DNA of 356 bases. Origin: Escherichia coli. GTDB lineage: Bacteria > Pseudomonadota > Gammaproteobacteria > Enterobacterales > Enterobacteriaceae. The stretch is taken from assembly GCF_003334385.1 (NCBI RefSeq), contig NZ_QOWN01000193.1; one strand, 5' to 3'. Made by a program: the position numbers and the translations under genes. Shown in pieces: positions 1-356 of the stretch. Under the pieces are notes generated by a model, which worked only from the letters and a program-made list of their open reading frames with translations, was not told the origin of the DNA and did no database searches. Within the stretch, counting starts at the first letter, position 1, and every line of letters begins with the position of its first letter.

Positions 1-356
1 GGTGAAGGTGATGCATATATTCCGCCTCATACAGGTCTGCCAGCAAACAGTACCGATATTGCACCACCAGATATTCCTGCTGGCTTTGTGGCCGTTTTCA
101 ACAGTGATGAGTCATCGTGGCATCTCGTTGAAGATCATCGGGGTAAAACGGTTTATGACGTGGCTTCCGGCGACGCGTTATTTATTTTTGAACTCGGTCC
201 GTTACCGGAAAATGTTACCTGGTTATCCCCGGAAGGGGGGGTTCAGAAGTGGAGCGGCACAGCCTGGGTGAAGGATACGGAAGCAGAAAAACTGTTCCGG
301 ATCCGGGAGGCGGAAGAAACAAAAAACAGCCTGATGCAGGTAGCCAGTGAGCATAT
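1..356 (+). CDS. tfa: Phage tail fibre assembly protein (Tfa family), internal fragment, partial at both 5' and 3' ends; reading frame begins at position 1
   Basis: Frame 1 is open across the whole window: 118 sense codons with no TAA/TAG/TGA, last 2 nt incomplete. Translation: [118 protein letters not shown]. From memory this closely resembles the N-terminal and central part of E. coli prophage tail fibre assembly proteins (TfaE/TfaQ/TfaR-like, lambda Tfa family), including the motifs [37 protein letters not shown] and [18 protein letters not shown]. The specific paralogue cannot be assigned. No start or stop codon of the gene lies in the window; the in-frame ATG at 334-336 is an internal Met. 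The ORF track did not report this frame, presumably because it has no stop in the window. Confidence 0.85.

Follow-up and report, generated by a model that had tools for sequence, protein, structure and literature searches.

The window, by which we mean the whole stretch of 356 bases analysed here, lies within the coding sequence of a phage tail fibre assembly gene (tfa). In the Escherichia coli genome SCU-104, it corresponds to L001:20001-20356, within the CDS annotated as tfa (L001:19926-20507). This CDS is intact and encodes 193 amino acids; it starts with ATG, and its only stop is the terminal one. The features of the window, numbered from its first base, are listed below.

Positions 1-356, + strand: internal part of tfa in frame 1, codons 26-143 and two bases of codon 144, of 193 (open frame, Pfam, PHROG, identity to the SCU-104 CDS, third-position bias).
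Positions 1-342, + strand: part coding for the N-terminal module, residues 26 to about 140 (alignment with tfaX-like ORFs, Pfam, and the literature on Mu Tfa, from which its likely role is taken).
Positions 343-356, + strand: first bases of the conserved C-terminal module (...SEHI...), of which about 50 more codons lie past the window (alignment, match to Mu gpU).
Positions 269-356, + strand: match to the first 88 of the 199 model positions of Rfam IS009 (RF02111), inside the CDS (86.8 bits, E 1.7e-20).
Positions 188-241, + strand: substitutions private to this allele at nt 188, 239, and 241 (S88F, E105G, and F106V), at which all other distinct homologues differ from the window.

Frame 1 of the + strand runs through the window without a stop (118 of 118 codons in a six-frame ORF scan of the 356 bases). 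It is the sole open frame of the six, and each of the five remaining frames contains 3-9 stops. The translation of the window matches the Pfam domain Caudo_TAP (PF02413) over residues 47-118 of 118 (i-E 9.9e-12) and the PHROG 105 family, 'tail fiber assembly', over all 118 residues (E 3.9e-56). The full protein of 193 amino acids matches PHROG 105 with an E value of 5.9e-98 and carries both Caudo_TAP_N (PF28596) and Caudo_TAP (PF02413) on record. The sequence family and the intact frame are thus directly visible. No model was matched in an NCBIfam profile search of the Tfa protein; this null result reflects the coverage of that library and is not counted against membership in the Tfa family.

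Comparison with homologues reveals how this DNA is constrained. The 54 distinct homologous DNA sequences that cover the region of the window are all ungapped, and none of them contains an in-frame stop. Variable columns fall predominantly at third codon positions of frame 1 (49 of 83, chi-square p = 4e-6). Furthermore, when the 885 differences from the window are read in frame 1, 526 prove synonymous, compared with 141 and 245 in the two other frames. The third-position bias and the lack of stops are a direct observation of coding constraint in frame 1. Other frames and the other strand were considered as genes and rejected, as their ORFs span just 24-89 amino acids, each in a frame with 3-9 stops. 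The longest, an 89-aa ORF in frame 2, is a shadow of the real frame, given the 141 synonymous differences in frame 2 versus 526 in frame 1. The repeats within the window (one 10-nt direct pair and one imperfect 10-nt inverted pair) are at chance level, and an Rfam match to SNORD113 (18.6 bits, E 0.46) is also due to chance.

Directly upstream of tfa in SCU-104 is a side tail fibre gene (stf) of 990 amino acids, located at L001:16954-19926. The stop codon of stf overlaps the start codon of tfa (GCA TAATG). The genes that precede tfa are arranged as portal, major capsid, tape measure, tail assembly genes, J, lom, and stf, which is the order of the lambda late operon, and tfa closes this lambda-like operon. 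Gene order and the start/stop overlap are read directly from the locus, and both recur widely. Of 91 related loci, 89 have an upstream ORF that ends in ...KNIAFNYIVRLA (the NYIVRLA end), with a stop that overlaps the tfa ATG. In all eight listed places that encode the identical protein, a tail-fibre ORF ends at the tfa start, and the downstream genes are common to all of them. Beyond the minus-strand genes that follow tfa in SCU-104 are the host genes ompT, envY, ybcH, and nfrA, a neighbourhood that we take to be that of the cryptic prophage DLP12 on the K-12 map.

It is therefore with high confidence that we regard the window as an internal piece of an ordinary lambda-type tfa gene, located behind the stf gene of a lambda-like E. 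coli prophage. An earlier note on this DNA had described the frame-1 translation as a chaperone of the Tfa family, encoded in the late region of a phage or prophage immediately downstream of stf. The Pfam and PHROG matches bear out the family, while chaperone activity would follow by analogy with homologues, and the lambda-like late operon of SCU-104 with its abutting stf gene agrees with the placement. The note had also anticipated a full length of roughly 190-200 amino acids, with 50-60 further codons and a stop downstream of the window. The protein has 193 amino acids; 25 codons precede the window, and 49 full codons and the stop follow it. The tfa gene is already known and sits in its known place, and nothing unusual is hidden in the window.

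Close relatives of the window are abundant. In a megablast search, the window matched 40 phage records annotated as tail fibre assembly genes, 38 of them with at least 80% window coverage. Among complete E. coli genomes, 4063 of 5426 (about three quarters) contain a homologous match, with a median of two and a maximum of seven matching places per genome; matches on this scale greatly exceed what chance would give. The annotations at these places read tail fiber assembly protein, tfaQ, or tfaR. Scanning viral contigs added 80 further loci whose Tfa proteins are 93-96% identical. Of the 5,426 complete E. coli genomes, SCU-104 alone contains the window at an identity of at least 99% (NZ_CP053284.1 1292824-1293179, 100%), and the next best match is 97.8% identical. 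The exact 356 bases are present in eight independent isolate or metagenome assemblies, namely SCU-104 and seven more, and the identical protein of 193 amino acids is on record in at least 24 contigs. The sources of the eight listed places with the identical protein are NCBI isolates or JGI and ENA metagenomes, and all eight contain the 356 bases of the window exactly.

The closest well-known counterpart is Tfa of phage lambda (orf-194; J02459 21973-22557). The lambda gene is 94.4% identical to the window at the DNA level, and the proteins, of 193 amino acids here and 194 in lambda, are 92% identical. In both cases, tfa directly follows stf, which has the same ...NYIVRLA end and overlaps the tfa start. 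The two genes differ at 20 nucleotides in the window. The amino acid differences of lambda Tfa include S63A, F88S, V97F, E103G, G105E, V106Y, S110N, and N134K, and the extreme C-terminus differs too. In lambda PaPa, a frameshift divides stf into orf-401 and orf-314 (PMC7291167), whereas it is a single ORF of 990 amino acids here.

The copies in K-12-type prophages are also close. The tfaQ gene of K-12 MG1655 (in Qin) shows 97.2% DNA identity and 94% protein identity, and a tfaR-annotated gene from strain BHUCD02 (tfaR belongs to Rac in K-12) shows 97.8% and 94%, respectively. However, the tfaQ/tfaR-type copies encode 191 amino acids and have a gene for a Pin-type recombinase (pinQ or pinR) after them, and K-12 tfaQ follows a mere remnant of stf. 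The gene analysed here encodes 193 amino acids, stands behind a complete stf, and has a manganese catalase gene, not a recombinase gene, after it. An invertible host-range switch of the Pin/Gin/Cin type was also considered. No recombinase gene was found after tfa, either in the locus identical to the window or in the eight places with the identical protein, where the next gene is the manganese catalase gene on the opposite strand. An invertible tail-fibre segment at this locus, as opposed to the K-12-type loci with pinQ and pinR, is excluded on these grounds.

The third known system that is informative here is phage Mu. Residues 127-192 of the full protein match the Mu tail fibre assembly protein U (PDB 5yvq_B, residues 113-175; E 1.1e-9 in a phmmer search against the PDB); just 127-143 of these residues fall inside the window. 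The two-module architecture and the C-terminal module are shared with Mu protein U (PDB 5YVQ chain B; PMC9608196). The N-terminal module, to which nearly all of the window belongs, has no similarity to the Mu protein that phmmer detects. In Mu Tfa, the N-terminal domain is non-conserved and binds the distal part of the fibre, while the C-terminal domain is conserved and helical and mediates trimerisation and correct assembly (PMC9608196, PMC7291167). Mu also differs in being a myovirus, and its fibre binds lipopolysaccharide (PMC7291167).

A boundary between two such modules can also be placed within the E. coli genes. Some 1 kb downstream of tfa, beyond a methyltransferase gene on the minus strand, there is a second, truncated tfaX-like ORF of 88 amino acids (L080:5365-5631), and similar copies are found at about 5393-5591 in L045, L037, L057, L070, L073, and L075, and at L029:8166-8364. 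The tfaX-like ORFs align with tfa only from ...SEHIAPLQDA... on, at about position 343 of the window, and the N-terminal module is absent from them. What they have in common with tfa is the conserved C-terminal module alone (...IAPLQDAVDLEIAT...WPTSPAE). This breakpoint of homology, in the last 14 or so bases of the window, marks the boundary of the two Tfa modules. Because the tfaX-like alignment starts there, the window is almost wholly N-terminal and would encode the presumed fibre-binding module.

These comparisons suggest how the gene may work. Since the start of tfa overlaps the stop of stf (TAATG), tfa is very probably translated by coupling to stf. Lambda Tfa helps Stf trimers assemble and forms part of the virion (PMC9608196, PMC7291167). 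The 92% identity to lambda Tfa points to a similar role in fibre folding and trimerisation and to binding of the fibre C-terminus. By analogy with lambda and Mu, Tfa would aid folding and trimerisation at the receptor-binding C-terminal end of the trimeric Stf, and it probably remains bound to the fibre tip. Within the protein, the N-terminal module, for which nearly all of the window codes, would attach to the fibre tip as in Mu Tfa, and the conserved helical C-terminal module, which begins in the last 14 bases of the window, would drive multimerisation. We infer both the chaperone activity and this division of labour from homologues. The window marks the end of the tail module of a lambda-like prophage, a mosaic part of the accessory genome with a bearing on phage host range. 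Its importance beyond correct annotation is little.

The neighbouring stf gene is mosaic. When L001:16954-19926 was compared with L004:564-3926 and L002:2982-3926, the first 494 amino acids of Stf proved 97% identical to the StfR-annotated homologue, the middle showed weak or no similarity, and the last 230 or so amino acids were 79% identical, with indels in His-rich GAHxH repeats.

The allele in the window is distinguished by three substitutions. Positions 188, 239, and 241 are the only ones in the window at which every other distinct homologue differs. The substitutions lengthen homopolymer runs, a run of five T at 185-189 and a run of seven G at 235-241. A sequencing error was considered as their source and is ruled out by the identical 356 bases in the eight independent assemblies. 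The substitutions are real. The allele is always paired with one Stf C-terminus, which is at least 99.2% identical over 240 amino acids. The nearest other Stf tip (L035) is 97.5% identical and is paired with the common Tfa allele. Because this tip carries the common allele, simple hitchhiking by linkage can explain the pairing of allele and tip. Co-adaptation of the private substitutions with the Stf tip was rejected on the same observation, together with the fact that the pairing comes from a single lineage. More generally, Stf C-termini are 63-83% identical over 240 amino acids among loci whose Tfa proteins are 94-97% identical. By this measure, Tfa is far more conserved than the tips it would serve. 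Since the Stf tips vary widely while Tfa barely does, Tfa cannot recognise the most variable parts of the fibre tip.

This conservation bears on whether Tfa might be mainly a fibre-tip adhesin like the T2-type gp38, one that sets receptor specificity and whose private substitutions alter host range. Both lambda and Mu Tfa stay in mature virions, and bound Mu Tfa contributes to receptor recognition (PMC9608196, PMC7291167). Moreover, the three private substitutions all lie in the N-terminal module, in an allele tied to one Stf C-terminus. However, a primary determinant of specificity would be expected to vary with the tip, whereas Tfa remains nearly constant across widely differing tips, and the ordinary allele behind the L035 tip allows the linkage to be read as hitchhiking. 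We consider an adhesin of this kind quite improbable. A more serious competitor, although still an unlikely one, is that tfa, although it looks intact, has no function, is carried along by a decaying (cryptic) prophage, and no longer serves in fibre assembly, like tfaD/tfaX, tfaQ, and tfaR in K-12. Most E. coli genomes contain several copies of the gene, many of them in cryptic prophages, and K-12 tfaQ persists behind its truncated stf remnant. In SCU-104 itself, a small tail gene between the tape measure gene and an L-like gene (L001:10401-10730) has an internal stop and is marked as a pseudogene. Given this stop, a prophage that is complete in other respects may be defective, and its tfa may currently play no part in building virions. 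Nevertheless, full length is seen in the matched locus for stf and tfa (990 and 193 amino acids) as well as for the other head and tail genes, and the third-position bias and the lack of stops among homologues indicate continuing purifying selection on the family.

Another competing explanation assigns an RNA function to part of the window. Positions 269-356 match model positions 1-88 of Rfam IS009, which is listed as an sRNA gene, and they could belong to a small RNA that is made or processed from the tfa region and acts as RNA. The score of 86.8 bits is below the gathering score of 117 bits, as the match is cut at the 3' end of the window. In the extended locus (L001:20269-20467), all 199 model positions are matched at 227.4 bits, above the gathering score. 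Full-length matches above this threshold are also present in lambda tfa, K-12 tfaQ, and the tfaR-annotated gene (L002, L003, and L004 at 4269-4467), and the 199-nt stretch folds modestly better than shuffled sequences (z = -2.1). On the other hand, what IS009 covers is the 3' half of lambda-type tfa genes, read on the coding strand and wholly inside the CDS. When L001:19700-20800 was scanned for consensus signals, the + strand showed nothing resembling a promoter, and no terminator-like site was seen on either strand. Across 46 distinct sequences, not one of the 23 model pairs showed a compensatory double change, a test of low power as these sequences are at least 93% alike, and the pair 81-89 is broken in 13 of the 46. 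In addition, 31 of the 51 variable columns in the IS009 region are third codon positions, as expected of coding sequence. Unlike an sRNA gene as listed in Rfam, the match here sits in a translated gene, with neither promoter- or terminator-like signals of its own nor support from covariation. Because such sites and compensatory changes are lacking, the match is best read as conservation of coding sequence, that is, an overlap of annotation, and not as a separate element. It is very improbable that IS009 is a small RNA of this kind, and equally so that a discrete, stable RNA starting at position 269 arises from the 3' half of lambda-type tfa mRNAs and acts in trans in lysogens. If it did, tfa genes in cryptic prophages would be retained partly for an RNA function. 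The claim of the earlier note that the window holds nothing beyond one known gene stands as far as no RNA element separate from the CDS is supported, but it overlooked that positions 269-356 also match the 5' part of IS009. In practice, an Rfam scan will report the 'sRNA' IS009 in the 3' half of every lambda-type tfa gene, and the label alone is no evidence of a non-coding RNA.

Two observations from the surroundings of tfa and from its database matches may be added. Between tfa and ompT, a minus-strand cluster of stress-type genes (L001:20627-24013) encodes a manganese catalase, two DUF892 ferritin-like proteins, a KGG general stress protein, and a SAM-dependent methyltransferase. The cluster is kept in all eight places with this tfa allele, as far as each contig reaches, and it could represent either cargo of the prophage or a host island at its junction. 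Among the phage records, MW057783.1 (48,361 bp), named 'Campylobacter phage CJLB-4', matches the window at 21968-22323 with 94.4% identity, which equals that of the lambda records, and at lambda-like coordinates. It looks like lambda sequence under the name of a Campylobacter phage and is possibly a contaminant or a mislabelled record.
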